Source of the DNA: Chiloscyllium plagiosum
Taxonomy: Eukaryota
Direction of reading: 5' to 3'
Assembly: GCF_004010195.1 (NCBI RefSeq)
Contig: NC_057718.1
Coordinates: 87,044,139 to 87,108,138, forward strand
Length of the DNA: 64,000 nucleotides
Numbering within the stretch: position 1 is the first letter of the stretch; each line of letters starts with the position of its first letter. The notes under the pieces were generated by a model. The model was not told the origin of the DNA and searched no databases. It saw only the letters and a program-made list of their open reading frames with translations. Shown piece after piece: positions 2,573 through 54,589 of the stretch. A program made the translations under genes and the position numbers.

Positions 2573-3271
2573 CTAAACATAACTCAGCTGTTCATCAAGA
2601 GCTAGCCTCACCAAGCCAGTCCTGCCTATTGATTTTCCCTGAGCTCCAATCTTGCTCAGTTACTGGATTGTTGGGACTTCATTGATAATTTTTTTATTTT
2701 CCTGATGATGATTGATGCCAGGCAAGGTGGCCTGAAGTAACCTTTTTTGTCCCTCCCTCCTAGTTTGAAAAGCAGTGTTACATTTATCAACTTCCAATTG
2801 CTGGCACTATTTTAGAATGTCGGGATTTTGGAAAATCAACATCAGTGCATTGACTGTCTCTGCAGCTACCTCTTTTTGCCCTCCCAGCATGAAGGCTGTA
2901 AGGTTCTGGGAATGTGTTGATTTTTAGCCCATTCCTTAAATTTCTGTAGCATCAGCAGGGAAAACTTATTAATTAGTTTATGTTCCTTGCTATTTTTAGA
3001 CCTTTGGTCACCTTCTATTTCTGCTATGTTATTTGTGAGACTTCTGTTGTGAAGGCAGACACAAGATTCTCACACAATCACATCAGTGTTAAAGTGCAGA
3101 AACTGGCTATTCAACCCATTGTGCCTGCGCCAGTTCATTAAATGAGTATCAGTACCTAGTGCCAATGTTTTTAATCTATATCCTTGCACACTACTTATTT
3201 TTTCCATAAAATCATCTGATGTCTTTTGCATACTTTAATTGAAGCTGCCTCCATCACATTTGCAGACAATG

Positions 3272-4039
3272 GATGTAGGTTTGCTCGCTGAACTGGAAGG
3301 TTCATTTCCAGACTTTTTGTAACCCTACTAGGTAACATCTTCAGTGTGCCTCTGGGTGAAGCACTGTTGATCATTCCTGCTTTCTATTGAAATGTTTGGG
3401 TTTCTTTGGGTTGGTGATGTCATTTGCTATGGTGACAGCATTCATGTGATGATGTCATTTCCTGTTCTTTTTCTCGGGGGTGGTGGACGGGGTCTAACTC
3501 GATGTACTTGTTGATAGAATTCCTTTTGGAATACCATGCTTCTAGGAATTCTCATGCATGTCTCTGTTTGGCTTGTCCTAGGATGGATGTGTTGTCCCAG
3601 TCGAAGTGGTGTCCTTCCTTATCTGTATGTAAGGATACTAGTGAGAGAGGGTCATGTCATGAACATCAACCAGCCACAAAATGACATGACCTTAGGACAA
3701 GCCAAACAGAGACATGCTCGAGAATTCCTAGAAACATGGCATTCCAACTGGAACTCTCAACAAACATATCGAGTTAGAACCCCATTTACCACCTCCTAAG
3801 CAAAAGAATGGGAAATGACATCACCACAGGAAATGATGTCACCATAGCAAATTACATCAACCCAAAGAAACCCAAACATATAAATAGAAAGCAGGAATTA
3901 TCAACAGTGCTTCGTCCGGAGGCCCACTGAAGATATTACCTAGTATGGTGACAAAACATCTGGAAATGAACCTTCCAGCTCAGTAAGCAAACCTACATCC
4001 AGAACCTCAACCTGAGCTACAAATCTTCTCAAAACTCCT
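3272..4039. mobile_element. Penelope-like element 3' ends in head-to-head inverted arrangement with TSD
   Basis: Both arms encode the GIY-YIG C-terminus (QAKQRHAREFLE.WHS); arms are reverse complements; flanked by ATTT(G/C)CAGACAATG. Confidence 0.88.
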
Positions 4040-11103: not shown

Positions 11104-11278
11104 GCTGATTCCTCAGAGAAGTTGCGACACTATGGACTTTCTCATGCGCATAGCCACCCAGTAATGGTTACTAGGACTAGGTCGTGTCCCCTCATAAACC
11201 CTCCAGAAACAACACCAGTTCCACGATGGAAGCTCATCCGACCACGAAATCGTGCTCTTCCAATAGCTGATCCAAAAG
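11104..11278 (+). CDS. ADGB: Androglobin coding exon (ADSSEKLRHYGLSHAHSHPVMVTRTRSCPLINPPETTPVPRWKLIRPRNRALPIADPK), phase 0-1
   Basis: tttcag acceptor, AAG|gtattt donor; diagnostic match to ADGB ADSAEKLREYGLSHICSHPVLVTRSRSCPL...PPWKLIR. Confidence 0.96.
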
Positions 11279-14129: not shown

Positions 14130-14490
14130 AAGGTTTAAAGTAAAAAGGAAAATGGAGATGTGAGAGGCAATTTTTTTAAACAGAGTGTGGAGAGTGCCTG
14201 GAATGCACTGCCAGAGGAGGTGATAGACGTAGATACCAGCTCAACATTTAAGAGGCATCTTGACAGATACATTACTAAGCAGGGAATAGAGGGTTACAGA
14301 CCACATGGAGGCGAAAGGTTTTTAGTTTAGAAAGGTATCCTGAAGAAGGGCTAATGCCCGAAACGTCGATTCTCCTGTTCCCTAGATGCTGCCTGACCTG
14401 CTGCGCTTTTCCAGCAACACATTTCCATCATGTGTCAGCACTGGCTTGGTGGGCCAAAAGGCCTGTTCTATCATGTACTGTTCTTTGTTA
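14130..14490 (+). mobile_element. CR1 LINE 3' end, interrupted by a hammerhead-bearing insert
   Basis: CR1 C-terminal remnant (…RVWRVPGMHCQ/ WNALPEEVI..…FKRHLDRY) and 3'UTR. Confidence 0.8.
14338..14429 (+). ncRNA. Minimal type I hammerhead ribozyme motif + Penelope tail (young copy)
   Basis: ATC-CTGAAGA-A-GGGC-TAAT-GCCC-GAAAC-GTC-GAT; 92 bp identical to 22921-23012. Confidence 0.72.
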
Positions 14491-19008: not shown

Positions 19009-20644
19009 GTTAGTAAGCAGCATCTGGGGAGTAATTTTGAGATGAAGACGGTACATTCATAGAATTAAGCATTAATTTAGAGTTGAATTTATTAACTGTT
19101 GATGATTATTTTAAAATTCCAAATTTAGTTTCTGACAACACATCACTGTGCAAAGACTTTATAATCTGAGTTGGAACATTTCTTTTAAGTACATCCCCAT
19201 ATATGATCACAAATTCCGCCCTCAATTCTAAAACTGCAGCATGTCTTTGTGTTCTTGGTCTTTAAGACATGTTGTGCTCTATTCAGTCAGATATTAATAA
19301 GCATCCTTCAAGTCACACCTTCAGTTTTCTTTAAATTCTTACCTAGTCTCTTTATGTTGTACTTTGTTATCCACTCCTATGCTGACTACATTCTTATTGT
19401 TGTCTTTGCGAACCCTCAGTTGTTTCCATATGGTCTTTATTCATCCACAGAATATCATATTATAGCGACTATTGCCTGTCTGGTCTGTACTTGATTCCCA
19501 CAATATGTACAGCAGTCCTCCCTAACCCAATATGAACAAAGGCCAATAAGGGAAGAATGGCTTTTAAATTTAGTAATGGGGAGTGAACAAGTGCAAATAA
19601 GGACCATAAAAGAAGGGGTACATCTATGTAATAGTGATCATAATATAGTACACTTTAAGATGATGATACAGAGGTGTGAATATGATGAAAATCATGTTAA
19701 TAGAGTTAAGAAAGGCTTACTTTTAAAGGCTTTGAATAAAATTTGTGGAAATAAAATTGGAAACTAAATTGGCTAACATTGATGTACAATAACAATGGAA
19801 AATGTTAAAATGGCATTCTAAGATAGTGCTGGGAAAATGCATTCTGATAAAAGGGACTCCATAAATGCATAAAAACATAAGAGAACAATAGAAATGGCCT
19901 TTGAAGCAACAGTAAAATTTTTGCTCATCACAAGACTACAGCTGTCATGTCGTCAATCTGAAAGGGCAATTTCTCTACTAGATAGCCAGTGGCTGGAGTT
20001 GACTCATTGCCTGTGGCAGATGCAGGGCAGTGTGATCCCTGAGGTATTGTACCAAAACATATACTCCTTTAAATTGTAGCTCTCTAGTTGTAATGGCTGA
20101 AATTCCATTGTGCTTTTTTTGTATCTGCTGCATCTTAGTGGTCTTTGTACATGAACACTAAATATCTTTGGGCCTCCACTGCCAGCTCTTCAACATTTAA
20201 AAAATATTGAGTTTAGGTCCACATGGAGGATCTCACATTTAACTGCACCGAAATCCAACTTCCGTTATTGGCAACACTCGTTTATTCTGTGAGTGTACCT
20301 TTGTAGTGCTACACTCTTGCCTACATTGCTTAACATGCCTCTAACCTTTGTATATGATACAGGAGACAGGATTATAGGACTTGCTGTTTTGGAAGTCATT
20401 AATACATTGAGTGAATAGTCAAGACCACAGCAAGGATATATATGGTATACTGCTTGTTATTTCTTCCCAAATTAAGTGTGTAAACATCACAACTATTTAC
20501 TGCCTTTGACCACTTAGCCAAATGTTTAAATAGGTGAATAAGTTTCCTTCAATTACAGAAGCTTTAATTTTAACTAACAGTCTGTTATGTGGACAGTATT
20601 AAAAAAAACACTTTCAAATAAATATCATTTTTGATTTTTTTCAG

Positions 20645-20761
20645 GAAAGACCACTTGAGTCCATAAAATCAGGTGGACAGCATTCAATAACTTCTCATGG
20701 TACTAAAAGTCAGCATGGCAGCAATACAAGTCGGCATGGCAGTGTATTTGAACATAAAAAA
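20645..20761 (+). CDS. ADGB: Androglobin linker exon (ERPLESIKSGGQHSITSHGTKSQHGSNTSRHGSVFEHKK), phase 0-0
   Basis: T-rich ttttttcag acceptor, AAA|gtaagt donor, 117 bp open; paralogous to exon 36565-36651. Confidence 0.8.
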
Positions 20762-21779
20762 GTAAGTTTCTGAAAACTTCTCCAGAATGTTTCAAGAAAG
20801 GATTGTTAGTATAGTATTTGTCAATATTTTAGGATAACATTTTGATTTTTGTACAATTTGGCAGACTTTTGGTATGAATCTTTTTCCAATATTCAATATA
20901 CAGTACACATTTCAACTGAAAACTTGTAACTATAGTACTGGAGTTCTCTTGTAGACTAGCTTGTTTTGGAATGCATATTGGTCCCCTGTTGTTTCCCACA
21001 GCAAAGAAAAAAATTGTTTTACTTCCTCAATGCCCTGTTTCCAACAATTGAATTTCAGACTTTGAAGGACTATTTTTTTCTGTATTTTGTTATGAAGGCT
21101 TCGTATTTGATCTTAAGAAAAGATCTTGGGTTTGGAGAATGTGGATAACTGGATTTATTTCAAATAGACAAATGAGAGGACATTGGAGCATTGTTTTTAA
21201 ACAGGGCATTTCTTAGTAGTAGGAGAAAGAGAGGACTGCAGACGATGGAGATCAGAGTCAAAAAGTGTGGTGTTGGAAAAGCACAGTCAGTCAGGCAGCA
21301 TTCGAGGAGTAGGAGAGTCTCGTTTCGAGCATTAGCTTTTGTCACTTGTCTTGTGATAACTGCTTGTTTACTGACCTGCCTGGCTTTATTACTATCAGAT
21401 TTCAGATTCTGTTTTGGAGTAGTTGGTAAACAGTCTGTTGAATGTGAAGCTTCTCACATTACTTCTCCTGTTTCTGAAACAAAAGTCTCGGTGTGAATAC
21501 AGTGTGATATCTGACGGTTTTCTTAAAGAGCATCTGAAATAATCTAGGTGCTGTATTTCCTGGGGAGGCTGTGTTTGCAAAGATCCCAGAGACAACTGGT
21601 TGTATTTGGTAACCTGCCCACACATTCCAGAACACAGACAGACAGATGAACACCTTGTCCTTTTTACCTTGAAGAGCTAATCATCGTTGACCAAAAGTGA
21701 TGCATTTTTCTACCTCTGTAGAGAGAAATCCATTTTCTTGTTTTCCTTGAGCTCACACTTTGCGCAATTATTGTGTGGT

Positions 21780-24060
21780 AGTTCCTCAGATATCTTCTGA
21801 AAATCTAAGTATAGTATACCTTATCCAGAGCACATTATACTCCTTGAAAAAGCTCCAGTAAAATGATTAAACATGATTTCCCTTTCGCAAAACTATGCTG
21901 ACTCTTCCCAATTACATTGAGATTTTCTAACACCTTCCCAATGACAGATGTCAAGCAAACTGGCCCATACTTTACTTTTCTCTGCCTCCCTCCCTTTTTG
22001 AATAGAGGAGTCATATTTGCTAAATTCTGATCTGATGGGATCTTTCCAGATTTGGATAATTTTGGAAAACTAGCACTAAAGTATTTACTGCCTGTATCTC
22101 ATGAGCCTCCTCTTTTAAGACACACAGACAAATTCCATCAGGACCCAGAGATGTGTCAGCTCACAGTTTCATCAGTTTGCTTAGCACCTTTTACCAAGTG
22201 ATGGTAACTTCACCAAGTTTTTCTCTCCCTTCAACCTCCTGATTTACAGCTATTACTGGAATGTGTTTTTGTATCCTCGAAAGTGAAGACAGAAGCAAAA
22301 TATTGCTTCACTTCATGTTCCAAGTCTTTATTATCCACCATCAGACCCCTATTCTCACTCATTAGAAGGCCACACTCACGTTACTTGTTCTTTTCCTTTT
22401 TCACCTGTAGAAATTGTTCTTTGTGTCCTCTCATATTTTAATTTATTTCTCCCAATTCATCTTTGAGTCATGCTTTGCCATTTTTTATATGTTGTTTAAT
22501 TATCTGATTTGGTACTCACTTGTACGTGGTTATAATCATTTCCTTAAGCTTGATCCCTTTTTAACTTCTTTATTTAACCACAAACAATAAGTCCTCCCTT
22601 CAGAACTTTTCCCCTATAGTCAATTTTTTTTGTAAAAATATACTTTATTCATAAAAAAAGAAATCTTTATGTCCATGCATACTCACAAAAGCAGTTCAGA
22701 TCTATACAGACTTTGAGGAGAAAGTGAGGTCTGCAGATGCTGGAGATCAGAGATGGAAATGTGTTGCTGGAAAAGCGCAGCAGGTCAGGCAGCATCTAGG
22801 GAACAGGAGAATCGACGTTTCGGGCATTAGCCCTTCTTCAGGAATGAGGGAAGTTGGTGCAGCAGGCTAAGATAAAGCTCCCTATCTTTTATCTTAGCCT
22901 GCTGGACCAACTTCCCTCATTCCTGAAGAAGGGCTAATGCCCGAAACGTCGATTCTCCTGTTCCCTAGATGCTGCCTGACCTGCTGCGCTTTTCCAGCAA
23001 CACATTTCCATCTCTATACAGACTTTGTATCCAGAGAAGGAAACAATCATTCTGGTTTGACTTTTTCAATAGTTACAACTAATCTAAAGGCATTTCTTAA
23101 TATATGCTAGGTACTAAGACCTATTTACATGTATCTGAGGCATTGAGAGGTCCAATAACTGAACGCAGTCTCATTGTAATATGCAGAAAGACCTTAAATA
23201 ATGATATTCAAAATATATTTATTCTGAGTACTTTTAAATATCCCTGAAAAATCTGCCATTTCTCAATTGATCTGTCCCCTAACTTAGTATCCGAGTTTAC
23301 TCCAGTTAGCTCTGCTTTCATGGCCACATACTTGACCTTACTTAAGTTTAAGATAATAGTCTGAGAACCACTCTTCTTTTTAAACCTAATGTAAGATTCA
23401 ATCATATATTGGTTGTTGCTATCTAGGAGTGCCTTTACTCTGTGGCTATTAATTAATCTTACTGTATTACGCAATAGCAAAATTAATAAATGACCTGCTG
23501 TTTGGTTGGTTCCAGAGTGTGCTGTTCTAAAAAAACAATTTCAAAGGCTATTTATGAAAGTCTCTTCCAGCCTACCATTGCCAATCTGATTCTTGTGGTT
23601 TAAGTGTAGATTAAAAGCACCACAATTCTTTAACCCAAGCAGCCATATTCTTTACCGTCCACTTCATCCTACATTGCTGTTACACTTAGGATGCCTATAG
23701 GTTACTTCCACTGGTGACTTCTTTCCCCCAACATTCATATTTTCCAAGGTAACCTCAGCCAGTGTGGGAATTGAACTGTATTGCAAACCAGCCGTCCAGC
23801 CTACTGAGCTAACTGACCCAGTTGAAAGACTCTCCTTAACCTCTTCCCTCATCTGAGGCATGGTGAACCTCAGGTTGAAGCACCACTAGTCATCTCTCTC
23901 TGATGAGAAATCAGCTGTATGGTTTGGTAGTACCATGGTGACTTTACCTTTATTCCTCATCTCTATCCAAACAAGTTCTACATCTTGATCTCTTGACCCT
24001 GAAGCAAAGTCTCTCTAACAATTGCACCAATGATATCTGTGACTAACAGTATTACCATTC
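21780..24060 (-). mobile_element. Decayed CR1 LINE fragments hosting younger insertions
   Basis: YRPVCLTS-like remnant near 21945-21970; ORF remnants 23208-23480 and VEVTYRHPKCN at 23664-23861. Confidence 0.65.
22716..23012. mobile_element. Fold-back Penelope-tail insertion with a hammerhead motif on each strand and 15-bp TSD
   Basis: Arms about 22749-22876 and 22888-23015 are reverse complements with one visible mismatch, 11-nt spacer; TSD TCTATACAGACTTTG at 22701-22715 and 23013-23027. Confidence 0.92.
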
Positions 24061-24091
24061 CATCTTAACCCAGCATCCAGTTCTGCTTAAT

Positions 24092-24739
24092 TGTGATAGT
24101 CATAAAGCTAATCCATTTTTCTTTATAAAAGCTGTTCCTTGGCTCAAGGAGACTCTGTCCTTGATTTTTTTCAGAGGGGCAATAAACCAGGCCAGACTCC
24201 GGTCAGTCTGGTTTGGTACAGAGATGAAAAAGATTTTGGGAAGCCTTTTGTTTATATGTAAGCAGATGAGATTTAAGACCAAAAGGGTCATGCTTCAGAG
24301 GTGACTTGTATAAAGAGAGGGGAGTGGTCAGCTCTTGAGCTGAGCATTTTTCAGTTCAGTCTTGAACTGGGAAGTTCAACAAGGAGCTGTGTGGAAACTA
24401 TCTCTCTTTTCTGCCCTTCAACTTCAACCTGTCAGCATGTGTTCCATTTATACTGGTTTTTAAAGGGAGTTTGCAAATTGGGACTGTTGTGTATATTTGG
24501 AACAGCTTAACTAATTCTAGTTGAATAGGCTGAGTTCTGTAGGGGTTCTTTCTTCTGCTCTTTGTGTTTCATTGTGTAATTTTGTGAATACATTTTTTGT
24601 CTGTTTTAAAATCTAGTAGTCAGCCTTGCTAACTTAATCTGGGTACTTTTCACTGTACACTTACCGAAATAAATTGCAAAGTTAGGTCTAGGGCTGTCTG
24701 TTTAAGGATGTTTTGAGTGGTCTGGCCTAATCCATTACA
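24092..24739 (+). mobile_element. Solo LTR (Gypsy-type), same family as 58012-58623
   Basis: TG...CA ends; 3' part GCAAAGTTAGGTCTAGGGCT...CCATTACA is the reverse complement of the start of 58012. Confidence 0.7.
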
Positions 24740-24857
24740 GTGATAACCCCTCAATATCTAGTACTCAATACTTGTCATTGTGTAGCCACATCTCTGTAAT
24801 GGATATCACATGGTATTTATTTACTTTAGTACATTTTATTATTCGACAGTATATAAT

Positions 24858-25344
24858 TGAATTGAATTAGCTTTATTGTCATATGCACTCAAATGAGTAC
24901 AGTGAAAAGTTGATTAGTTGCCACTTACAGTGCCATCTTAGGTACAAAGGTACCTGGGTACAGCTTCTTGGCTACAGATTAGTTACAGTGTAACAATGTC
25001 ACCAACACATCGTACCATCTTAGGTTCAGAGTACCCCTGGGTACAATCCTTCGCTACAGAACTGAAAAATGAAGAAAAAAAAGTTACAGCTATACACAGA
25101 ATAACCATAGGTCAGAAAAACAAGATGCAAAGTTAAAAAGACAAACATCACTGTCGGTCTCCAAGGGGACTCCACAGCAGGCCAGTGCAGGGGGCTTCCA
25201 TGTGGTCTGACTGTTAGCTGTCGCTGTGCTACACACTGGGCCACTGCCCCTTCTTCGCTCTAGACCCTGATGTCCCCGCTTTGGGCCTCAGACGAGAGGA
25301 AAAGAGGGAGAAAAAAAGAAAAAGAACAGGAGGTGCAGAAGCAA
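24858..25344 (-). mobile_element. Non-coding retroposon with Rex1/Babar-like tail
   Basis: Tail TTTTCACTGTACTCATTTGAGT..ATATGACAATAAAGC + (TTCAA)n on minus; relatives at 26400-26872 and 39376-39898. Confidence 0.6.
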
Positions 25345-26135
25345 TCATCCCAACACCCACAAATGGAGCTGCATCAGGACATTATTTAAATGGGCTACAA
25401 CACACTGCAGCACCCAGGAACTAGGGGAAGCTGAGGACAAACACCTGCATAATGTATTCAGGAACAACGGGTACTGATAAGTGCAATCCGCCAATTCCTG
25501 CACAACAAATCTAACAAGAATACACAACATGCCCAGAGACTCTAGCCACCCTGTCTTACATCAAAGGCATCTTAGAGATGACGACCAGACTGCTCCGACT
25601 CCTAGACATCATGATAGCCCACAAACCTGCCACCACACTGAAACAGCTGCTGATGAATCTAAAGGACCCTGTACCAACAACCAGCAGAACAAACGTCATA
25701 TACAAAATACGCTGCAAGGACTGCAACAAACATTACATTGGACAAACAGGCAGGAAACTAGCCACCAGGATAGATTAGCACCAAGTAGCTGCCAAAAGAC
25801 ATGACCAACTATCACTGGTTTCCATACACACAGATAAAGAGGGACACCAGTTTGACTGGGACAATGCATTTATTCTGGGACAGACTAAACAAAGACACGC
25901 ACGGGAATTCCTGGAGGCCTGGTATTCAAACCGGAACTCCATTAACAAATATATAGATTTGGATCCCATTTATCAACCTCTCAGAAACAGAACCAGAAAT
26001 GATCTCACCCACCATAACAAACTGAGACAGATAAATAGCAAACAGGACAGAATCCCCACGCTTCGCCAGAAGCTCACTGATGATGTTACCTAGCATGGTG
26101 ACTCTACCAGCTCAGCAAGCAAACTTACAACCTGA
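25345..26135 (+). mobile_element. Penelope-like element, RT C-terminus + GIY-YIG endonuclease + 3'UTR, decayed
   Basis: HPNTHKWSCIRTLFKWATTHCS; NVIYKIRCKDCNKHYIGQTGRKLATRI; partial hammerhead CTGATGA-TGTTACC...GGTGAC at about 26077 with GAAA lost. Confidence 0.92.
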
Positions 26136-26399
26136 CTTTATTTATATTTTCATTTTGCTGCCTTTATAGTCTTTGTTTTAGTTAATTTTTCTGTGGTTGA
26201 AGATGGCATTGGAGAGTGGCTACACTATACAACACTTTTCACTATTTTGTAGCAAGATACATGTGACAGTAAATAAATCAAATACACATTAGCTACCTTT
26301 CAGTCTTCTAGCACCTCACCTGTGATTGTAGATGATAGATTTTTAAAATATTAAATATATGCTTTATTTTCAAAAAAAATCTTTAGACACACATATATC

Positions 26400-26872
26400 T
26401 TCCGGTCCAACATGGCAGCTTGTCCACTCTGGAGAAGGTCCATTGTTTTTTTTCCCTTGTGTTTTTAACCCTTCTCTTTGGACCTCCGGCAACTCCTGGC
26501 CTCAGCTCATCCATAAGGAGGGGTCCTCTCGGCCTGGGCGTAGTGGCCTTCAGCTTGGCATGGACTCAGCATGGACTTCGGGCCTTAGGTGATTCCAGAA
26601 CAATCTTCCAACCTCATGATCTTCAAGTGAAGCCTGGTGTGGTCTGGAACTAAGGCCCAGTATGGAGTACAAGCTAGGTCTCAGCATGGTCTGGATAGGA
26701 GCACTGTTATTCTGAAGTTCTACTTTTGCAATGCTGGACTTTTTATTTCTCTAAATGAGATCTTCTAAATGAAGAACCTGTTCCTGGGTACCTAAAGTGG
26801 CACTGGAGGTGACAACTTGTAAACATTTCACTGTACACGTTTGAGTACATGTGACAATAAAGCTGATTCTAA
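26400..26872 (+). mobile_element. Non-coding retroposon with Rex1/Babar-like tail
   Basis: Ends TTTCACTGTACACGTTTGAGTACATGTGACAATAAAGC; homologous to 24858-25344. Confidence 0.55.
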
Positions 26873-27942
26873 TAGTCACTAGAGCAGTTCAATTCTATAG
26901 TCTTTGTATATTGAGAACAAACAAAAACTTTATTTCCACTTCGATAAGTTTATATTTGCATACCAATCAGGAATGTCTCCGCTAGGGTCCTGCAAATTCA
27001 TCTGAGTTTATTGGACTTTTTGCCCTCTATGTTCAAAAAGCTGAACTACAACCATCCAAATGGTAAATTACATCCAGACATTTTTGATATGCACTGACAA
27101 ACATAAAATCTTTCTTTGAACAGTAAAACAGCCCTACTAAAAGTAGAGCCACAAAAAATTATTTAAAACTCTGAGTGTTCCTCTCCACGGAAATCTTTAG
27201 TAAAAGGCGAAAGATTTATACGATCTGAAGAGAAACCAGAGTATACTACAGAATCGTACCAATTCCTCGTACCCAATTGGTAACGTCCCTCCTTAACATT
27301 AGATTGAGCTGTCGCAACTTGTATCCCGGGGACATATACTAACATAGATTAACATTGTACGAGGCAATATTAAACCCTGTGTGGCAACATTTGTTAAATA
27401 TTAAGTTTTATTCCTTTATTTTAGTGTTGAACCTTATGCGTATGTAGATGAGCTGCGTGTTGTGTGGGTTGGGTTTACAGTGACGTGTGCATAATTCTGA
27501 CAATCAGCGTCTATGTTGCATATTCATCCTCTTAATATGTTTGAACATTCGGATTAAAATTTTTCAGTAGTACATGAAGATAATATTGCATTGCTTCATA
27601 TGGGAATCCCCATGAATTTAATGACAAAGATGCAGAGCTCGGAGTAAGAGAAAATACGGAAATGACTTTCAATTCGGTTGCCGCTGCGCTGAAAAATGTT
27701 GACACGTTTATTGTTGTAGAGGTAAAAACAATGACTGCAGATGCTGGAAACCAGATTCTGGATTAGTGGCGCTGGAAAAGCGCAGAAGTTCAGGCAGTTA
27801 TATTTGAGCAAAGAAACGAAGCTTGATCAGCGATTACTATTTTAAATGTTGGTCTTTATACACTAATCTTGGATATCCATCGTAATCGCCGCCAAAATAA
27901 ATTACCAAACTATTGCGGAAGTTTGCTTGAAACTACATCGAT

Positions 27943-28097
27943 TCTGGATTATTGGTGCTGGAAGAGCACAGTAGTTTAGGCAGCATCCGAGGAGCAGTAA
28001 AATCAGGATGCTGCCTGAACTGCTGTGCTCTTCCAGCACCACTAATCCAGAATCTGGTTTCCAGCATCTGCAGTCATTGTTTTTACCTGGTTGATTT
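27943..28097. mobile_element. Short fold-back Penelope-tail insertion with TSD
   Basis: ATTCTGGATTA.TGGTGCTGGAAGAGCACAG...GGCAGCATCC versus its reverse complement downstream; AAACTACAT(C/A)GAT at 27930-27942 and 28098-28110. Confidence 0.8.
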
Positions 28098-28819
28098 AAA
28101 CTACATAGATCTTGAGCATTTATGGCCAAGGATCAACCCTGCGTGATTGCATCACCATCACAAAACTGGTTAAAGCCGCCGTGTTACAGAGTAATGTCGG
28201 AATTATCTGTGGCTGTACAGTGAATTCTTAAATGCACTTGTAAAATTATGACCAGATTTTCAGATGCAACAGGCAGTCATTTCAGGTATTTTGTTTTTGA
28301 CGCACTTTTTAAAAACAATCATCTTTGAGATGTGCGCACTTAGTCTTTATAAAGCATTTTATAGTGTCACACTAAAAACTAAAAAGCTTCCAGTTTGTGG
28401 AAATTTTAAACATGCGTGCCTAACGTACATGGACGCGAATGAAACTTTAAAGATTGGCAAGTAAGGCCAGTGTTTCCGTGGGCCTTAGTGTTGACGCTTT
28501 CACTTGTTGAGCTGAGTAGGAAAGTACCAAATGCACAAAGAGCATACTTCAAATATTTCCGAAGCAGAAGAAATTTACAACATTCCATACTCACGTCAGC
28601 GTGTAGAAACTAACTAAAGTAGCGTAGGTTTAAAAATTGAAATTAATATCATTTTGCTTTTAATGCTCAGGCTTGAAACATTTAGTAAAAGTAGTTTATA
28701 ACTGTAAGTGGTTGTTTTAGTAAATTTTAAGTGATCAAACAGGGGTCTTTACTGCTATAAGTAAACAGTTGCATCAAGCTATGCAACACCCTCAGTATGA
28801 AAATCCCAAGTGCTAAGGA

Positions 28820-30770
28820 TCTTTTTATTTCAAAAATATATAAACATATTTTATATCTATACATACTCACAAATGCAGTTTGGCTCTGTTCAGTAGCGTA
28901 TCAAGAAAACAAACAAACAAAGCTGAGGATAGAGTTTGACTCTATCCAAACAAACCAAAGATCTCTCTTACACATACAGGACTATATTTACATGCATTTG
29001 GGGCACTAAGAGGGCCCGATAACTGAACAGGCCCCCTGTAAACAACAGCGGGAAGACCTCAGGTCTTTCCCCACTGCATCTTCGCAGCAGCTTTAGTGTG
29101 TCCCTCAGCACATAGTCCCGGACCTTGGGATATGCCAGTCGCAACCCTCGGTTGAGGTCAACTTCTTGATCTGGAAGACCAACAAGTTTTGGGCAGACCA
29201 AAGAGCATCGTTCACTGAGTTGATGGTCCTCCAGGCACGGTCAATGTTTGCAGTTACTGGACTGCAGACTGTAGAGCGCAGAGTCCTGCATTATGGAGTT
29301 GCTTGGGATGAACCTCAACAAAAATCCATCTACCAGGCCTGCCGTCAAGGAACGGCCCCCAGCATTCTCAAAGATCCATCCCAATGATTTTCTACAACCT
29401 CTACCATCGGAGAGAAGGTACAGAAGCCTGAACACACGCACCAGCTGGTTTTTGAAACAGTTTCTACCCAACTGTTGTTAGAATACTGAATGGACTCACA
29501 AATTCTTAACATTCGCCTGGACTTGTGTTTTTTGTTTTTGCTACTGTTTACCTATTATTTACTTATTTATACTACTTAACTCTGTGATCTTCCTGTATTG
29601 CTCACAAGACAAAGCTTTTCACTGTTCCTCAGTACACGTGACAATAAATTCAATTCAATGCCTTAGTGCTTGTTGGAAAGTTCTCGTGATGAGGCATTCT
29701 GCCAAATGACTTTGACAGTCTATTCAGGGAACCACGCAACAGGATCCATCCTCTCCTTTTCCCACAGAGTCTCAAGGATGCTATGTGCTCACTACTTTCT
29801 GATGTATTTGTGATCAAATTTCTCCACAAAGAAAGGTGATATGGAACGGTCCAACTACTTAGAGCATTCTGCGGCAATGAGGCCAGTCCCATTCTTCACA
29901 TCACCAGGGAACAGATAGAACTTCAATGCATAGTGACACTAAGTATTTACGTATGAGGGTCTATGCACAGCTTGATGCAGCTACACACAAAGGTGGCTAT
30001 CAGGATGAAGGTGGCATTGGGTACATTCTTCCTCTTGTCCAGAGTTTTATACGTTGAGTCAATGCAGGCATGGTCCATCTTAGACCTCCAGATGAAATGT
30101 AAAATAACTCAGGTGACTGCAACTCACAGTTTTGTAGAATGGACCAGACATATGCCACATACAACAGCAGAGAGAGTACCTCACACCTGATGACCAGGTT
30201 TTTGACAACAATGGAGAGGGAGCAGTGCTCCCAAAAGACCAGTTTCTGTTACAATGCGCTCCTCCCAAGATTTTGTGCATGCCCCAGTCCCTCCAAACTG
30301 TATTCCCAGGACCTTCAAATAATCTGACCTGATGGTGACGGGATAAAGGATCAGTTGGCCCAGTTCCCAAAGAACAAGGCCTCGCTCTTGCCTCGATTCA
30401 CTTTGGCTCCCAAGGCCAGTCCATACTAGTTGCAGATCCTCATGAGTCTGTGAACTAATGATGGAACCGAACAGAAAGCAGCAACATCTTCCATGTACAA
30501 GGAAGGCTTTAACCTGCAGGTCCATGCGGACTGAAATACTCATCCCTCTCAGGCTCTCATTCTTCCTGATGGACTCAGCAAAAAGCTCTGTATAACACAC
30601 AAACAAGGCAGAAGACAGTGGGCAGCCCTGTCTGACTCTGGATCTGACCGGGAAGCTCTAATTCCCATCCATTAATTGAGGCTGCACTAATGGTGTTGGT
30701 GTAGAGCAGTCAGATCCAATTGCAGATTCCTTCCCCAAAACCCATTCTGGAGAGCATATCACATATACAT
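28820..30770 (-). mobile_element. L1/Tx1-clade LINE ORF2 3' half, decayed
   Basis: Remnants (S)VRQGCPLSSALFVCYTELFAESIRKN, YLKVLGIQFGG...KSWEERI, LRLAYPKVRDYVLRDTLKL. Confidence 0.85.
29233..29658 (+). mobile_element. Rex1/Babar LINE 3' end nested in the Tx1 element
   Basis: SILKDPS..FLQPLPSERRYRSLNTRTS; tail AAGCTTTTCACTGT...GTGACAATAAATTCAATTCAAT. Confidence 0.82.
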
Positions 30771-31548
30771 GTGCGATATCCTGTCATTCTCCTGGTCCAA
30801 GCTACTAAGTGCTGAGAACCTAACTGTCTCCACTGTTAGGAAAGATTGGTCTAGCCACATTGCTTTGGGAACTCCAGTTAGTTGCACTGCACTGTACCAG
30901 CTCTCCCTTGTGGAGACATTATTGCAGAAAAACACTTTGACCACAAATACATCAGGCAGTAGTCAGCAGGTAACACCCTCAAGGCCTTGCTGGAAGGATC
31001 GATCCCTTGTTTGCTTCCTTGAGAAGACTGTCAAAGCTAATAGGCAGAATGTGTCATACCAACACTTGCATATCAGCACCAACATGTAGCCTGGTGGTAT
31101 AAAGAGCTCTTTCCATCAGAGCCTTCTCACATACCTGAAGTCTGGAGAACGATGCAATAGTTTTTGTCCAAGCTCATTCTGAGCAACTATGTAACATAGA
31201 TCTCTGTGCTCTATGTGATGTTCCCAATGACACATACCAAGACACAGACCAACTACACCTAGACAATCATTGTAAACACAGTGTCTATTTATTTTTGGGC
31301 CTTTAAAAACTGTGGACTGCAATGAGAAAGAACATCTTAAAAACAGGATTCACCGGGAAGGCTGCATAACTTGAAATCTAACATGAACTCTATTTTTATA
31401 ACTGTGGATTCCTACAATGTGCACATCATCAGGGGCTGAGGAGATGTTTACAAATGAAGCTGTTTGGTTCTCAGCTGTCTGAGCAGGTTGAAAATGAAAC
31501 AAGTTACAAAGGCACAGACACAGAGAGAGAAGACACAGAAATGATTGG

Positions 31549-31865
31549 TCGGCACGGTGGCACAGTGGTTAGCACTGCTGCCTCGCAGCGCCAGAGACCC
31601 GGGTTCAATTCCCGACTCAGGCGACTGACTGTGTGGAGTTTGCACGTTCTCCCCGTGTCTGCGTGGGTTTCCTCCGGGTGCTCCGGTTTCCTCCCACAGT
31701 CCAAAGATGTGCACGTTAGGTGAATTGGCCATACTAAATTGCTAGGTTAGTAGTGTTAGGTAAGGGGTAAATGTAGGGGTATGGGTGGGTTTCGCTTCGG
31801 CGGGTCTGTGTGGACTTGTTGGGCCGAAGGGCCTGTTTCCACACTGTAATCTAATCTAATCTAAT
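31549..31865 (+). mobile_element. HE1-like V-SINE, young full-length copy
   Basis: GGCACGGTGGCACAGTGGTTAGCACTGCTGCC..GGGTTCAATTCCC (A/B boxes), V-domain, (TCTAA)n tail; CpGs retained. Confidence 0.93.
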
Positions 31866-31940
31866 AAATGTGTGCAATCGTCCTCTCCAGCAGAAAGTGC
31901 AGTTAAAAATAACTTAATTTAAACCTAAAAAAAACAAATA

Positions 31941-32362
31941 CAGTATATACTCGAGTACTAATCGATCTCATGTAAAAGACAACACCCTATTTTTGGCCAA
32001 ATAACCTGGAAGTTTCCATATATCCCATGTAAAGGTCGACCCTAGTTCTTCACAGGTAACAGATCAACATTTATGAGTCAGTGTGCTGGCCATCACGTCC
32101 CATTCTAGCTTTCCAGTCTGCCAGTTGTTCAGCTCCACTCCCAGTCTGCCAGTCCTTTGGCTGTTCTCCGCTCCAGGTTTTCAGAATTACTGTAATTCTT
32201 TTTTTTCATTTAGAGATCATTTGGGTTTCTACTAATGATACGATATGAATTTTGAGGGGCATGAATTTTAGCCCCTCAGCAGTCGTATCCATGTTATAGT
32301 CGACCCCATGAATTTAACTTTAAAAAGTCAAAACAATTCAAAAATTGCTCGAGTATATTCGG
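31941..32362. mobile_element. Tc1/mariner-superfamily (pogo-like) MITE
   Basis: TIRs CAGTATATACTCGAGTA / TGCTCGAGTATATTCGG, TA on both flanks. Confidence 0.75.
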
Positions 32363-32914
32363 TAGCTTTCATGAATTAGTCTCTGTGAGCTGTGAATTTT
32401 GAATTGATAAATCAGAGACATTTTCCAAGTGAATCAATCATTCTGTACTTCGTATGAACAAGTGAAAACTTCTACAGAAAGACAACTGAACACCAAGGAC
32501 CTGTAGAGCTGAAAAAAGATCATTTCAACATTGGAACTGGGAAGCAAAGACCACTGAAATGATTTTCAGTATTTTTCCCACCTTATCCAATAATCTGTTT
32601 TTTCCCTATTCGTTTGCTTATGTGTGTTTATATGTCAATGATTTATATCTGTTTATCTGTAGCTGTTGTCTAATTACTTGTAATAAATAAAAATTCTTGT
32701 TTAGTACAGAAACTTAGCCTGTGTTTTCTATCAACCTTGGCCTGAATTGTGAATCACCAAGTGTCAAGCTGTAGCTCAGTCAACAGAATGATGGCCTGGG
32801 TTCTCCAGGACACTAGCAGCATATTGCCAATTGTGAATTATGTGCCATCCGTAGGTTAGGACAAAGAGAACCATTGATATTCAGCAAATTACAGGATAAG
32901 CTTATCTGTAATTT

Positions 32915-33231
32915 TTAGATTAGATTCCCTACAGTGTGGAAACAGGCCCTTCGGCCCAACCAGTCCACACCGACCCTCCGAAGAGTAACCCACCAGACCC
33001 ATTTCCCTCTGACTAATGCACCAAAGACTATAGGCAATTTAGCCAGGCCAATTCACCTGACCTGCACATCTTTGTGACTGTGGGAGGAATCTGGAGCACC
33101 CAGGGGAAACCCACGCAGACACAAGGAGAATGTACAAACTCTACATAGACAGTCGCCCGAGGCTGGAATCGAACCTGGGACCCTGGTGCTGTGAGGCAGC
33201 AGTGCTAATCACTGAGCCACCGTGCTGCCCA
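32915..33231 (-). mobile_element. HE1-like V-SINE
   Basis: Reverse complement of the 31549 family; (TTAGA)n at left end. Confidence 0.92.
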
Positions 33232-33660
33232 AGATCTTAAAATGTAAACTCAAATCCAGGAAAAACTTTTTAAAAAGGTTTTACCAATAAGGCAACAGGA
33301 CACAGTCTGGTGCAGTAACTCAGGAAGCTATACCTAGGTTATAAATATTATCGATTAAAACAAAGCAGCAACTTTACAGGTGCATTATAGCTCTTGATTT
33401 CCAATTCAGTTTAAGGTATAGGTTGACACTTGGTCTCTTGTCTATTTCCAAAACCCCACGGCCCCTCCCTTTTCAATTGGATGGCAGGATATCTTAACTT
33501 CTTGATCACCAAACGCTGTTACTTTTTACTTTTAAAGCCACATCCCACAAACATGATCACTTACAGCAATACAATTTTAATAGCCTAAATTGGATGAGAC
33601 CTATTGCTAATTGGTTTATGAGGCACATGCTCAATCTCCAATTTTCTGTTAAGAATGATG

Positions 33661-33980
33661 CTGGAAATGTGTTGCTGGAAAAGCGCAGCAGGTCAGGCAG
33701 CATCCAAGGAACAGGAGAATCGATGTTTCCCCCTTCTTCAGGAATGGGGAAAGTTTGTCCAGCAGGCTAAGATAAAAGGTAGGGAGGAGGGACTTGGGAG
33801 AGGGGCGTCGGAAATGTGATAGGTGGAAAGAGGTCAAGGTGAGGGTGATAGGTCAGACTGGGGTGGGGGCGGAGAGGTCGGGAAGAAGATCTCAGGTTAG
33901 GAAGGCGGTGCTGAATTTGATGGATTTGACTGAGACAGGGTGGGGGGAGGGGAAATGAGGAAACTGGTGAAATCCGAATC
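33661..33980 (-). mobile_element. Penelope-type 3' end with 15-bp TSD; hammerhead helix II deleted
   Basis: CTGTTAAGAATGATG at 33646-33660 and 33981-33995; same tail as 22716 and 53350. Confidence 0.85.
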
Positions 33981-34552
33981 CTGTTAAGAATGATGGACAG
34001 TCACTGATGTCACCACCCACTATATCCTGATTGGGCCCTTAAGTTGTCAATTATTCGTGGGTCCATCCTCAACATTAAGTTTTGTTATGGTGACTTTGAC
34101 TTTTTACTAAGAGGGTTGGTTGAAATGTTCTTTTCCTCTTTGTTCAGGAAAAGGGAGCCATTTGCAGTCAGGACTAAAAGATTAATACCCTTGAGCTGAT
34201 GACTAATCCTTTGTTTCATTGATAAAGTTCCCATTAAATCAGGCAATTATTTATCACTGACCTTTTGATTCTGATTTTTGATTTGATATTATTGTCACGT
34301 ACTGAGATACAGTAAAATGTATTGTTTTGCATGCGAACCAGTCAAATCATACCTTACATGAGTACATCAGAGTAATACAAAACAACCTCGAATATCCGAA
34401 TGAGACGGGCAGGGATCTGATCGTAAACAAAGGAAGCATTTACGGGACCTTGAGATCTTGTTCAGATAATTCAAAATTCGGATAAATGGTGTTCGGATAA
34501 CCTAGATTGTTCTGTTGAACAGTACGCAGAATATAGTGTTGCAGCTTCAGAG

Positions 34553-35312
34553 AATGTTAAAAATCAAACAACACCAGGTTATAGTCCAACAGGCTTATTT
34601 GGAAACACGAGCTTTCAAAGCTCTGCTTCTTCCTCAGGTGGTTGTGGAGAAAAAGACAATAAGACACAGAATTTATAGCCAAATGAGTACAGTGTCATAG
34701 AGATGTGATGATACATTAAACAATTTTAGATCAAGTCTTTCAACTTTTAGAATGGAATGTTTTTTCTGATCTATGATATGTATATCCCAGAACGTCTTTT
34801 AAATTACATTCTCAAGAAAAGCCTAGCTTTTCTAACAACAGGTGTCATCTCAGCTCAGACAATGCATTAAGGTGTGAGGTCTGTCTGTGTCCCAGTGTTG
34901 AATTAGACTGGTTCTATTTCTAAAGTGGGATTAGAGAGTTTTACATGGATTCATGCAGTTTTAGAGCAAAATAAAATGTAATTCTGCAAAAACAAATTCA
35001 CCCCATAAAACTTATATGTGTGCGTGTGTAGGAGAGGCAGAGTGAGTGTGTGCATATGAGTGTGCATGCATGTGATAGAGAGTGTGTGTAGGCTTGGTTA
35101 AGTGTGTGCGAGTGTGATGGGGTAAATGCATGTAAGAGGGTGCATGCATGTGTGTGAGTGCAGGGGGTGTTTGTGTGTACATATGAAAGCGAGCTTTTGT
35201 ATGAGAGAGAGTCTGCATGGGTGTGTGTGTATAGGAATGTGTGTGAGTGAGTGTATAGTACAGTGGAGTCACCTATAGTGTGACGTGAACCCAAGATCCT
35301 GGTTGAGGCCAT
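34553..35312 (-). mobile_element. Penelope-like element 3' end (third family) with CA-rich 3'UTR and degenerate hammerhead
   Basis: Minus strand encodes GLNQDLGFTSHY (PLE C-terminus), then a CA-rich tract (35012-35260) and CTGAGGAAGAAGCAGAGCTTTGAAAGCTC; tail repeated at 48668-48752. Confidence 0.75.
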
Positions 35313-35423
35313 TCCCACGGATATCGAATTGCAATAAATGTTATCGCCTAAGTAATCTGCCACCATTAGAAATAGGATAACAGGTGTGAGCCAGGAATTT
35401 AAACAGAAAAAGTACAATATGGA

Positions 35424-35730
35424 GTGGCATGGTAGCTCAGTGGTTAGCACTGCTCTCTCAGCGCCAGGAACCCAGGTTTGATTCCAGCCACAGGTTTGCA
35501 AATTCTCCCCATTTCTGTGTGGGTTACCTCCGGGTGCTGTGGTTGCTTCCTACAGTCCAGAGATGTGCAGGTTAGGTGAATTGGCCATGCTAAATTGTCT
35601 ATAGTGTTTAGGGATGTGCAGGTTAGGTGCATAATGTAGAGGAATGTGTCTGGGTGGGTTACTCTTCGGAGGGTCAGTGTGGACTTGTTAGGCCGAAGGG
35701 TCTGTTTCCACACTGTAGGGATTCTATGAT
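35424..35730 (+). mobile_element. HE1-like V-SINE
   Basis: tRNA head, partial V-domain, tail GTTTCCACACTGTAGGGATTCTATGA. Confidence 0.88.
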
Positions 35731-36564
35731 CATAAGTATGTAAGTTAGCTCACTGAGCTGGAAGATTTATTTTCAGGTGTTTCGTCACCATGACTAGGTA
35801 ACCACACTGTAGGAATTCTATGATTCTATGATTCTATGATCCAGATTGTCTGAATTTGTAAATTCAAAGAATTGTGGTAGTGATAATTGTAAATATATCA
35901 ACAAATGTATAACAATAGTACTATGAGATAAAAAAAAAGACACGGAGAGAGCTGTTGTATATGGATCCAAAAGAATTAATACTTAATTGAGTGCAACAAA
36001 TCAATCCTGCCAATGATGTCATGGAGAATTGGTAATAGTGAAGAAGAAACTGGTGGACTCAGACTGAGGTGCTGTTTTTCTAACAGTTTTTGTAGTACTG
36101 TAGGTCAGATTCATATTATTTTCAAATACTTACAGAAGTTCAATAAACTTCATACTTTATACTCAACAGGACATTTCCAATTAAATCAGAAAAATGGATA
36201 TCCTAATACACACCAAATTATTTCAGGCTTGAAGTTACCTACATACAACAGATCACACCTATCTAGTCCTTCAGCACACTCCAGAATTCTCCCACTCTAA
36301 CTGGAAGCCAAGTCTGTAAAATAGGACCAATGTTTCTTCAAGAAATATATACTTATGTTAGTGGACGAAGATCAGTTTGATCTGAGTTTAGAAGAGGATG
36401 AAAGAAATGCATACAATATGAGAATTAATATTCTAGATGTTTCAATTGTCTTTCATTTAAGTTAAATTTGTGCGATGTTATTGTCAGGCTAGTATTCTTA
36501 CCCAAATAAGTAAAGTTATAAATTTCACATTAACTATCACATTTATTGCTGTGCTCTTTCGCAG

Positions 36565-36651
36565 GAAATTGATTCCACAAAAGCAAGTGGTCTGCTTTCA
36601 TCAGTGTCTCATGGTGCTAAAAGTCAGCATAGTAATATAGCAGAACACAAG
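36565..36651 (+). CDS. ADGB: Androglobin linker exon (EIDSTKASGLLSSVSHGAKSQHSNIAEHK), phase 0-0
   Basis: ctctttcgcag acceptor, AAG|gtaagt consensus donor, 87 bp open; paralogous to exon 20645-20761. Confidence 0.8.
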
Positions 36652-41834: not shown

Positions 41835-41966
41835 AGGAGAAAGTGAGGACTGCAGATGCTGGAGATCAGAGTCGAAGAGTGTGGTGCTGGAAAAGTACAC
41901 CCGGTCAGGCAGCATCCGAGGAGCAGGAGAATTGACATTTTGGGCATAAGCCCTTCATCAGGAATG
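41835..41966 (-). mobile_element. 132-bp Penelope tail starting at the hammerhead, with 10-bp TSD
   Basis: ATCTTCAGCA at 41825-41834 and 41967-41976; reverse complement starts CATTC-CTGATGA-A-GGGC-TTAT-GCCC-AAAATGTC. Confidence 0.85.
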
Positions 41967-42094
41967 ATCTTCAGCAGAATTATTTTCAATTTGGGAAGGA
42001 GCAGGGCATGAGGATTTCAGCTCTCAGTAGCTATTTGCAAAAACATATCTCTACATTTTACCAGAGGTCCCTAACTCACAGGTGCCTTTCCTTA

Positions 42095-44629: not shown

Positions 44630-45440
44630 GGAGGATGGTGTTCATTTTCTGAAACTTTTAAACTCAATGTTGAGTTCCGAAAACTGTAAGGTACTTAGGC
44701 AGAAGATAAGGAGTTGTTCCTCAGGCTTGCATTGGGCTTCATTGGAGCACTAGAGCAGGTCTGAGACAGAAATGGGAACAAGGTGGAATAACAGGCAACA
44801 GGAAACTTGGGGTCAATTTACAGACAGACAGTAGGTGTTCCATATAGCAGTCATCGCGTCTGTATTTCGCTTCACTTGTATAGAGCGGACCACATTGTGA
44901 GCAGTGAATGCAGTTGACTAGATTGAGTGAAATACTAGTAAATCATTGCTTGGAAGGTGTGCTTGAGGCCTTGGTTGGTGAGGATGGAGGAGGTAAATGG
45001 ACAAGTGTTACGCCTTTGGCGATTAAATGGGAAGGTGCTGTGGATGTGTGGGGTGGTGTTAGGAATGGACGAGGAATGGACTGAGGGAATAGTCCCTGTG
45101 GAATGCTGACAAGTGAAGAAAGGGCAATATGTGTCTTGTGGTGGCATCCCAATGGAGATGGTGGAAATGCTGTCTTCTGATCCTTTGGATGCGGAGGCTG
45201 GTGAGGTAGAAAGTGAGGATCGGACAGACCCTATCATAGCTGTGGGAGAGGAGAAAAGGGTGGGGGCAGAAGTGCAGGAAATAGATCAACATGGCTGAGG
45301 GCCCTGTCCACCACAAAGATAGGGAATCCTCAGCTGACTAAGGGAAGAGATTTCTGAGGCCCCCCATTGTGGAAGATCAGATACGATGGAGACCGAGAAG
45401 CTAAAAGAATGGAATTAAATCATTACAGGAAGCAAGTTGT
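44630..45440 (-). mobile_element. Penelope-like element RT C-terminus/GIY-YIG fragment, decayed
   Basis: DRVCPILTFYLTSLRIQRIRRQHFHHL.WDATTRHI; CPFTSSILTNQGLKHTFQ; HCSQCGPLY. Confidence 0.75.
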
Positions 45441-53300: not shown

Positions 53301-53349
53301 AGTCTCTGCGTTTATGTCCCCTCTGAGAACAAAACCCAACAACAACATA

Positions 53350-54580
53350 GCTGAAAATGTGTTGCTGGAAAAGCGCAGCAGGTCAGGCAGCATCCAAGGA
53401 ACAGGAGAATCGACGTTTTGGGCATAAGCCCTTCTTCAGGAATGAGGAAAGTGTGTCCAGCAGGCTAAGATAAAAGGTAGGGAGGAGGGACTTGGGGGAG
53501 GGGCGTTGGAAATGCGATAGGTGGANNNNNNNNNNNNNNNNNNNNNNNNNNNNNNNNNNNNNNNNNNNNNNNNNNNNNNNNNNNNNNNNNNNNNNNNNNN
53601 NNNNNNNNNNNNNNNNNNNNNNNNNNNNNNNNNNNNNNNNNNNNNNNNNNNNNNNNNNNNNNNNNNNNNNNNNNNNNNNNNNNNNNNNNNNNNNNNNNNN
53701 NNNNNNNNNNNNNNNNNNNNNNNNNNNNNNNNNNNNNNNNNNNNNNNNNNNNNNNNNNNNNNNNNNNNNNNNNNNNNNNNNNNNNNNNNNNNNNNNNNNN
53801 NNNNNNNNNNNNNNNNNNNNNNNNNNNNNNNNNNNNNNNNNNNNNNNNNNNNNNNNNNNNNNNNNNNNNNNNNNNNNNNNNNNNNNNNNNNNNNNNNNNN
53901 NNNNNNNNNNNNNNNNNNNNNNNNNNNNNNNNNNNNNNNNNNNNNNNNNNNNNNNNNNNNNNNNNNNNNNNNNNNNNNNNNNNNNNNNNNNNNNNNNNNN
54001 NNNNNNNNNNNNNNNNNNNNNNNNNNNNNNNNNNNNNNNNNNNNNNNNNNNNNNNNNNNNNNNNNNNNNNNNNNNNNNNNNNNNNNNNNNNNNNNNNNNN
54101 NNNNNNNNNNNNNNNNNNNNNNNNNNNNNNNNNNNNNNNNNNNNNNNNNNNNNNNNNNNNNNNNNNNNNNNNNNNNNNNNNNNNNNNNNNNNNNNNNNNN
54201 NNNNNNNNNNNNNNNNNNNNNNNNNNNNNNNNNNNNNNNNNNNNNNNNNNNNNNNNNNNNNNNNNNNNNNNNNNNNNNNNNNNNNNNNNNNNNNNNNNNN
54301 NNNNNNNNNNNNNNNNNNNNNNNNNNNNNNNNNNNNNNNNNNNNNNNNNNNNNNNNNNNNNNNNNNNNACCCTACTCCGACCTATCACCTTCACCTTTAC
54401 CTCTTTCCACCTATCACATTTCCAACTCCCCTCCTCCAAGTCCCTCCTCCCTACCTTTTATCTTCTCCTGCTGAACACTCTCTGCTCATTCCTGAAGAAG
54501 GGCCTGTGCCCGAAACGTCGAATCTCCTGTTCCCTGGATGCTGCCTGACCTGCTGTGCTGTTCCAGCAATAAAGTTTCAA
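53350..54580. mobile_element. Inverted pair of Penelope 3' ends flanking an assembly gap (N 53526-54368)
   Basis: Left arm minus, right arm plus, mutually reverse-complementary; hammerhead motif on each. Confidence 0.8.
54488..54523 (+). ncRNA. Minimal type I hammerhead ribozyme (best-preserved copy)
   Basis: ATTC-CTGAAGA-A-GGGC-CTGT-GCCC-GAAAC-GTC^-GAAT: helix I ATTC/GAAT, helix II GGGC/GCCC, palindromic ACGT helix III, GUC site at 54517-54519. Confidence 0.78.
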
Positions 54581-54589
54581 CAATAACTG

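Follow-up and report, generated by a model that had tools for sequence, protein, structure and literature searches.

The window, i.e., the whole 64-kb stretch of Chiloscyllium plagiosum DNA that was analysed, covers exons of the androglobin gene (ADGB), the exon at 11104-11277 being 100% identical to Chiloscyllium plagiosum androglobin. Pfam searches of nine short candidate exons returned no family for any of the nine, and the identity of ADGB was established by homology (blast) instead. On the plus strand, tblastn of the protein P0002 delimits an ADGB intron between two further exons (20642-20761 and 36562-36651), and the insert described here lies within this intron, roughly 2 kb away from any exon. 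The same intron contains a U5 snRNA match (104 bits; 27130-27244, minus strand), antisense to the gene.

The insert, 297 nt in length, is almost wholly palindromic: two arms of 128 nt each (22749-22876 and 22888-23015) are reverse complements with a sole mismatch at 22859 and 11 nt between them, and the predicted fold reaches -267.6 kcal/mol (z -34 relative to 200 shuffled sequences). It is bounded by a perfect 15-bp direct repeat, an identical 15-mer at 22701-22715 and 23013-23027 that occurs twice in the 64-kb window, on both flanks of the insert, and nowhere else. An earlier, sequence-only reading had described the palindrome, its arms, the one mismatch, the 11-nt gap, the hammerhead motifs on opposite strands and the 15-bp duplication, and sequence comparison confirmed all of these. 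The features needed below, including two related copies elsewhere in the window, are as follows (PLE, Penelope-like element).

14338-14429, plus strand: solo tailless copy, 92/92 nt identical to the arms, beginning just before the hammerhead core (blastn and alignment)
20762-36561, plus strand: host ADGB intron (tblastn of P0002)
22701-22715, strand not applicable: target-site duplication, left copy, 15 bp (single copy at the empty site, run X9 record 18)
22716-22751, minus strand: PLE tail, 36 nt (33 nt if three ambiguous bases are assigned to the right arm; alignment with family copies)
22716-22876, minus strand: left arm, 161-nt 5'-truncated pLTR 3' end, with tail (blastn and alignment)
22814-22841 (read 22841-22814), minus strand: putative minimal hammerhead core, antisense in the ADGB pre-mRNA (sequence reading)
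22877-22887, plus strand: head-to-head junction, i.e., base 22877, unassigned, and 10 nt of element sequence of the right arm (alignment)
22878-23012, plus strand: right arm, 135-nt 5'-truncated pLTR 3' end, tailless, ending at the proximal 3' end (alignment)
22923-22950, plus strand: putative minimal hammerhead core, sense in the ADGB pre-mRNA (sequence reading against PMC4209133, in part)
23013-23027, strand not applicable: target-site duplication, right copy, 15 bp (15-mer match and empty site)
33661-33980, minus strand: longer single sister copy, 320 nt, 88% alike, with a perfect 15-bp duplication (blastn, alignment and protein comparison)

A blastn search with the insert recovered 11 further loci of the same or a sister family within the window. 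In an alignment of both arms with seven of these loci (nine ends), four subfamily ends are tailed and five tailless, terminating at the same two places within 1-2 bases; these two habitual 3' ends of the family sit 36 nt apart, and the outer ends of the insert coincide with them. The left arm runs 33-36 nt past the palindrome (22716-22751), and this overhang is the element's tail, which terminates at the distal 3' end common to other copies, a place (22716/22717) where loose contig ends pile up in all four runs compared. Within the 11-nt spacer, 22878-22887 is ordinary element sequence that longer sister copies carry directly upstream, leaving one additional base. Each arm possesses template sequence that the other does not, i.e., the 36-nt tail on the left and a 10-nt 5' extension on the right. 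A unique loop was rejected as an explanation of the spacer, as 10 of its 11 nt are element sequence present at that place in sister copies, and so were terminal inverted repeats of the DNA-transposon type, the ends being unequal and coinciding with reverse transcriptase (RT) start sites. Judged from the alignment, the unit is two truncated 3'-end PLE copies placed head to head and not a hairpin with a loop of its own; it lacks a reading frame and is likely dead.

The solo copy at 14338-14429 lies some 8 kb from the insert, inside another repeat, and a clear duplication is absent. The sister copy at 33661-33980 has lost 8 nt of the hammerhead stem II. An older fold-back of a sister family is present in the intron that holds the insert (27940-28088), with a tailless left arm, a right arm with a 34-nt tail, a decayed duplication (17/20) and a different centre downstream of the hammerhead core, which is absent. 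Strict settings of the duplication search found none for seven of ten intervals, and looser settings gave the one for 27940-28088. A single tailed copy at 41835-41967 has a 10-bp duplication. At 53347-54584, a gap of 843 Ns is flanked by two tailless copies of the family that lie inverted to each other (88% complementary); no duplication was found there, and the pair may represent either a single long inverted insertion or a join across the gap. In a different repeat family, a 730-nt region (3270-4001) aligns at 80% to its own reverse complement. Outside the shark, a 31-nt arm pattern matched nothing among contigs of metagenomes, prokaryote genomes and viruses.

The connection to an autonomous element comes from the longer sister copy, whose 5' end encodes a peptide matching the last 24 amino acids of the whale-shark protein P0125 (17/24 identical; pairwise E 4e-8, in-window tblastn E 0.027). 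P0125 scores 23.2 bits for the Pfam domain GIY-YIG (above the cut-off of 22.6) and 22.7 for RVT_1 (below the cut-off of 29.6), and it carries a CxxC-type linker, Neptune-like by the description given in PMC8557442 (in part). Through this one sister copy and a protein from another shark, the family is contiguous with the end of an RT and GIY-YIG reading frame, which ties it to an autonomous element. The PLE origin proposed in the sequence-only reading is supported. The position as terminal repeat of a frame with RT and C-terminal GIY-YIG, a mark of PLE membership, is in this way seen in a copy 88% alike; the link to the frame spans 24 amino acids, and an intact parent element was not found. Two further remnants occur in the window: a decayed PLE fragment at 44645-45433 (minus strand) with RT thumb, CxxC linker and GIY-YIG domain, for which a word search of 44938-45237 gave no homologues and HMMER gave four, and a second GIY-YIG fragment at 25677-25892 (plus strand).

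The locus was compared with contigs and reads from 4 of the 24 listed runs at 90% likeness; one of them, X1, possibly comes from the very sample used for the assembly. An orthologous empty site, suggested earlier as a check, was found in a related species (organism B, run X9 record 18), where the sequence runs from 23280 to 23013 and then directly from 22700 to 22627 with one copy of the 15-mer; the record covers flanks of 74 nt and 268 nt, with 10 differing letters in 342. Because this site is empty, the duplication is real and the insertion is younger than the split that left about 3% divergence in the flanks (ca. 97% alike), unless it is polymorphic. The claim of a single insertion event is borne out by the same record, and that of a young insert by its absence from this relative together with arms that differ at 1 of 128 sites. 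The insert shows further marks of an endonuclease-positive PLE: a target-site duplication with its empty site, an inverted adjacent 5'-truncated copy in head-to-head arrangement and a tail at one end within the 30-40 bp range (36 nt, left arm only). In X1, records 2 and 8 cover the left and right outer junctions with no mismatches and in opposite element orientations, but they enter the element by 20 and 21 nt, respectively, less than the 31 nt required for bridging. Among the pieces listed, which are the minority, none crosses the palindrome centre, and in run X5 none of those listed spans either junction. The family is very abundant, with 57,150 X1 contigs matched, and loose X1 contig ends gather at 22716/22717 (368 and 177 contigs) and slightly past 22757 and 23007 (177 and 147), which correspond to the family's two 3' ends.

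Both arms carry what reads, against PMC4209133 (in part), as a minimal hammerhead, with the conserved core, the extra base before stem II, the G10.1-C11.1 pair and a palindromic 15.2-16.2; the plus-strand motif has its predicted cleavage site after C22950. Helix I is weak, with three of four pairs and one U-U (the type has 4-5 bp), and the copy near 54.5 kb has four of four. At the Rfam gathering score, no hammerhead was recovered in the whole window, the U5 snRNA being the sole match. In predicted folds, the pair probabilities of stem II fall from 0.71-1.0 in a lone arm to about 5e-15 in the full hairpin, so that the earlier suggestion that the hairpin masks its own ribozyme holds as far as burial of the motif is predicted. 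That this masking matters is unlikely, because a single minimal hammerhead, the Schistosoma motif, gave no detectable cleavage in print (PMC4209133, in part). The anole motif required protein and was dispensable for in vitro insertion (PMC11167929, in part). We consider that the hammerhead would be doubled here only because it is located within 130 nt of the template's end, i.e., as a passenger.

RNA reads bear on the family rather than on this locus. Run X21, of which about 2% was read, has next to no depth in the flanks and is uninformative on the insert locus; 96% of its reads run on in a way unlike the insert locus and come from other copies. T>C changes at 22747 (212/721 on one strand, 17/273 on the other) and 22827 (49/126 and 24/200 by strand) compare with 3-5% and 6-7%, respectively, in contigs of organism A. 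Places with A>G or T>C number 34 in X21, compared with 14, 16 and 10 for the runs made up of contigs, but those with C>T or G>A are likewise up (34 against 27, 25 and 28). These counts, which are not locus-specific and lack matched DNA, hint at A-to-I editing of family transcripts; heavy editing has been described for a lizard Penelope (PMC5625713, in part). A functional hairpin in the ADGB pre-mRNA, whether as ribozyme switch, editing substrate or small-RNA source, might draw on the predicted 128-bp duplex and on the strand-skewed T>C changes at these two positions in family-level reads, but it is barely credible: the insert is missing in organism B and lies ca. 2 kb from the closest exon, the reads stem from other loci, and a single minimal hammerhead did not visibly cleave in published work (PMC4209133, in part).

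We are highly confident that the insert is the outcome of a single recent insertion of a PLE, in which two short 3'-end copies were joined head to head. The sequence-only reading had also entertained a non-autonomous ribozyme-hairpin element, which as a fixed-centre retroelement would spread as a 297-nt unit; in favour of this, the unit is clean, bounded by a duplication and has an RT start signal preserved at each end. A check for a shared centre, carried out through contig joints and depth, brought out many different centres and lent no support to a shared-centre family: among 804 fold-back joints in total, the best-supported 15 are 15 different left-to-right skips (their short sides measure 21-30 nt in the contig runs, and single joints are weak). 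Eleven of these best 15 land at 22916-22922, 1-7 nt before the hammerhead core and not at the predicted cleavage site, and the present insert extends 35-45 nt further upstream than this cluster. A same-centre copy would escape detection as a joint, and the joint table alone is insufficient to exclude such a family; however, the depth just left of the centre (22859-22860) is very low. For X1 and X5, respectively, summed depth at 22860, a rough bound and no copy number, amounts to 155 and 84, as against about 10 and 7 in the unique flanks and millions in the arms, and as a rough bound it leaves no room for a large family with the same centre. An identical 92-nt piece of the same subfamily exists as a solo arm at 14338-14429, and the second fold-back in the intron differs in its centre and lacks a hammerhead core. 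Judged indirectly in this manner, many copies with one centre were not found, and a fixed-centre element is exceedingly unlikely. An assembly artefact, whether it concerns the palindrome itself or its precise centre and length, is also very unlikely. Inverted PLE structures do trouble short-read assemblies (PMC8557442, in part), the centre is absent from the contig pieces listed, and the window holds a gap inside another inverted pair (53526-54368); yet both outer junctions are present in X1 contigs in opposite element orientations, the arms are asymmetric and differ at one base, and the duplication and empty site fit a genuine insertion.

How the two copies came to be joined is less certain. 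In L1 elements, both ends of a staggered cut can prime cDNA (twin priming), producing an inverted part inside one duplication. For the shark insert, the endonuclease of an autonomous copy elsewhere would cut both strands 15 nt apart; the plus-strand 3' end would prime cDNA from the distal (tail) start, halting after about 161 nt, and the minus-strand 3' end would prime cDNA from the proximal (tailless) start, halting after 135 nt, whereupon the two cDNA ends would be united, a single additional base being included, and the gaps would be closed. Both outer junctions begin at RT starts of a known kind and have the form of cDNA extending off a 3' end of the duplicated target, and the template bases that each arm holds and the other lacks are as expected of two separate cDNAs. 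In PLEs, two adjacent RT starts define the tail, and both strands are cleaved and extended by a predicted dimer (PMC11167929, in part); the available part of that paper saw no strand difference in start-site use. Twin priming from a 15-nt staggered cut is the simplest account, one locus being insufficient to decide, and within the confident reading as a PLE insertion we lean slightly towards it. A possible, if less probable, route to the same PLE insertion is that the tail-primed cDNA primed itself, folded back and was copied to the tailless position, the tip later losing 9 nt on one side. This reading is favoured in PMC3846280 (in part), and it suits arms that agree at every site but one; if the left arm were given back 9 nt, the palindrome would be perfect and base 22877, untemplated under twin priming, would be explained. 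It requires a second event, i.e., the tip deletion, as well as a reason to halt at the tailless start, an RT start site according to PMC11167929 (in part), and the one-base match at 22877 is expected by chance one time in four. Mechanisms beyond these two are rather unlikely. Extended to the fold-backs in general, the proposal that they preserve, in frozen form, the outcome of twin target-primed reverse transcription carried out by a PLE dimer, with a 15-nt staggered cut, a tail start and a tailless start, has in our estimation an even chance of being right.

An inverted truncated copy with a one-ended tail of 30-40 bp is known from PLEs (PMC8557442, PMC3846280; both in part), and dual hammerhead motifs on opposite strands, ca. 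100-700 bp apart, have been reported (PMC4209133, in part). Endonuclease-positive PLE insertions with inverted pLTR and tail (PMC3846280, PMC8557442; in part) likewise have an inverted 5'-truncated copy, a tail at one end and a duplication around the unit; the shark insert differs in that its parts are only 135-161 nt, the frame is lost and the whole is almost entirely palindromic, and its duplication is 15 bp as against 8-10 bp in the rotifer examples in the available part of these sources. It is thus a product of PLE truncation and inversion, as had been proposed, though not an "extreme" one, the layout being standard for PLEs. With the minimal hammerheads of metazoan PLEs (PMC4209133, in part) it shares the core, the extra base before stem II and the G-C pair at its base, the lack of a helix III loop and the palindromic ACGT; it departs from them in a stem II of 4 bp and a helix I with three of four pairs, and no shark family is named in the available part of that paper. 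Poseidon PAc of Anolis (PMC11167929, in part) similarly has two 3' ends separated by the tail and both strands cut and extended, whereas a model of inverted arms is absent from the available part of that paper and the shark family has a CxxC linker. Non-LTR retrozymes (bioRxiv 10.64898/2026.07.22.740005, in part) are likewise non-coding, hammerhead-bearing and PLE-derived, but are head-to-tail tandems with hammerheads on one strand, whereas the insert is head to head with one per strand; an assignment to them, which takes at least two head-to-tail units with same-strand hammerheads, was rejected. Our searches of the literature by title and start of abstract, which covered few subscription papers, returned none on shark fold-backs or on twin priming by PLEs. 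In L1 inversions, the stretch copied by the inverted part is another one, located upstream, whereas the two arms of the insert copy one and the same stretch.

We consider the insert an ordinary PLE integration product, real, recent and well bounded, with a layout already described for these elements. As a single locus it matters little, being one of very many short PLE insertions, intronic and absent in a relative; it is usable as a presence/absence marker between bamboo-shark lineages, and such fold-backs might supply a large amount of the double-stranded RNA that arises from shark introns. With its empty site, duplication and both start sites, it is also a tidy specimen for how PLEs make inverted copies and tails. 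Should twin priming be correct, it would provide a one-step explanation for the inverted copy and one-sided tail of all Penelope-like elements, and shark genomes hold enough young fold-backs for this to be tested through junction counts.
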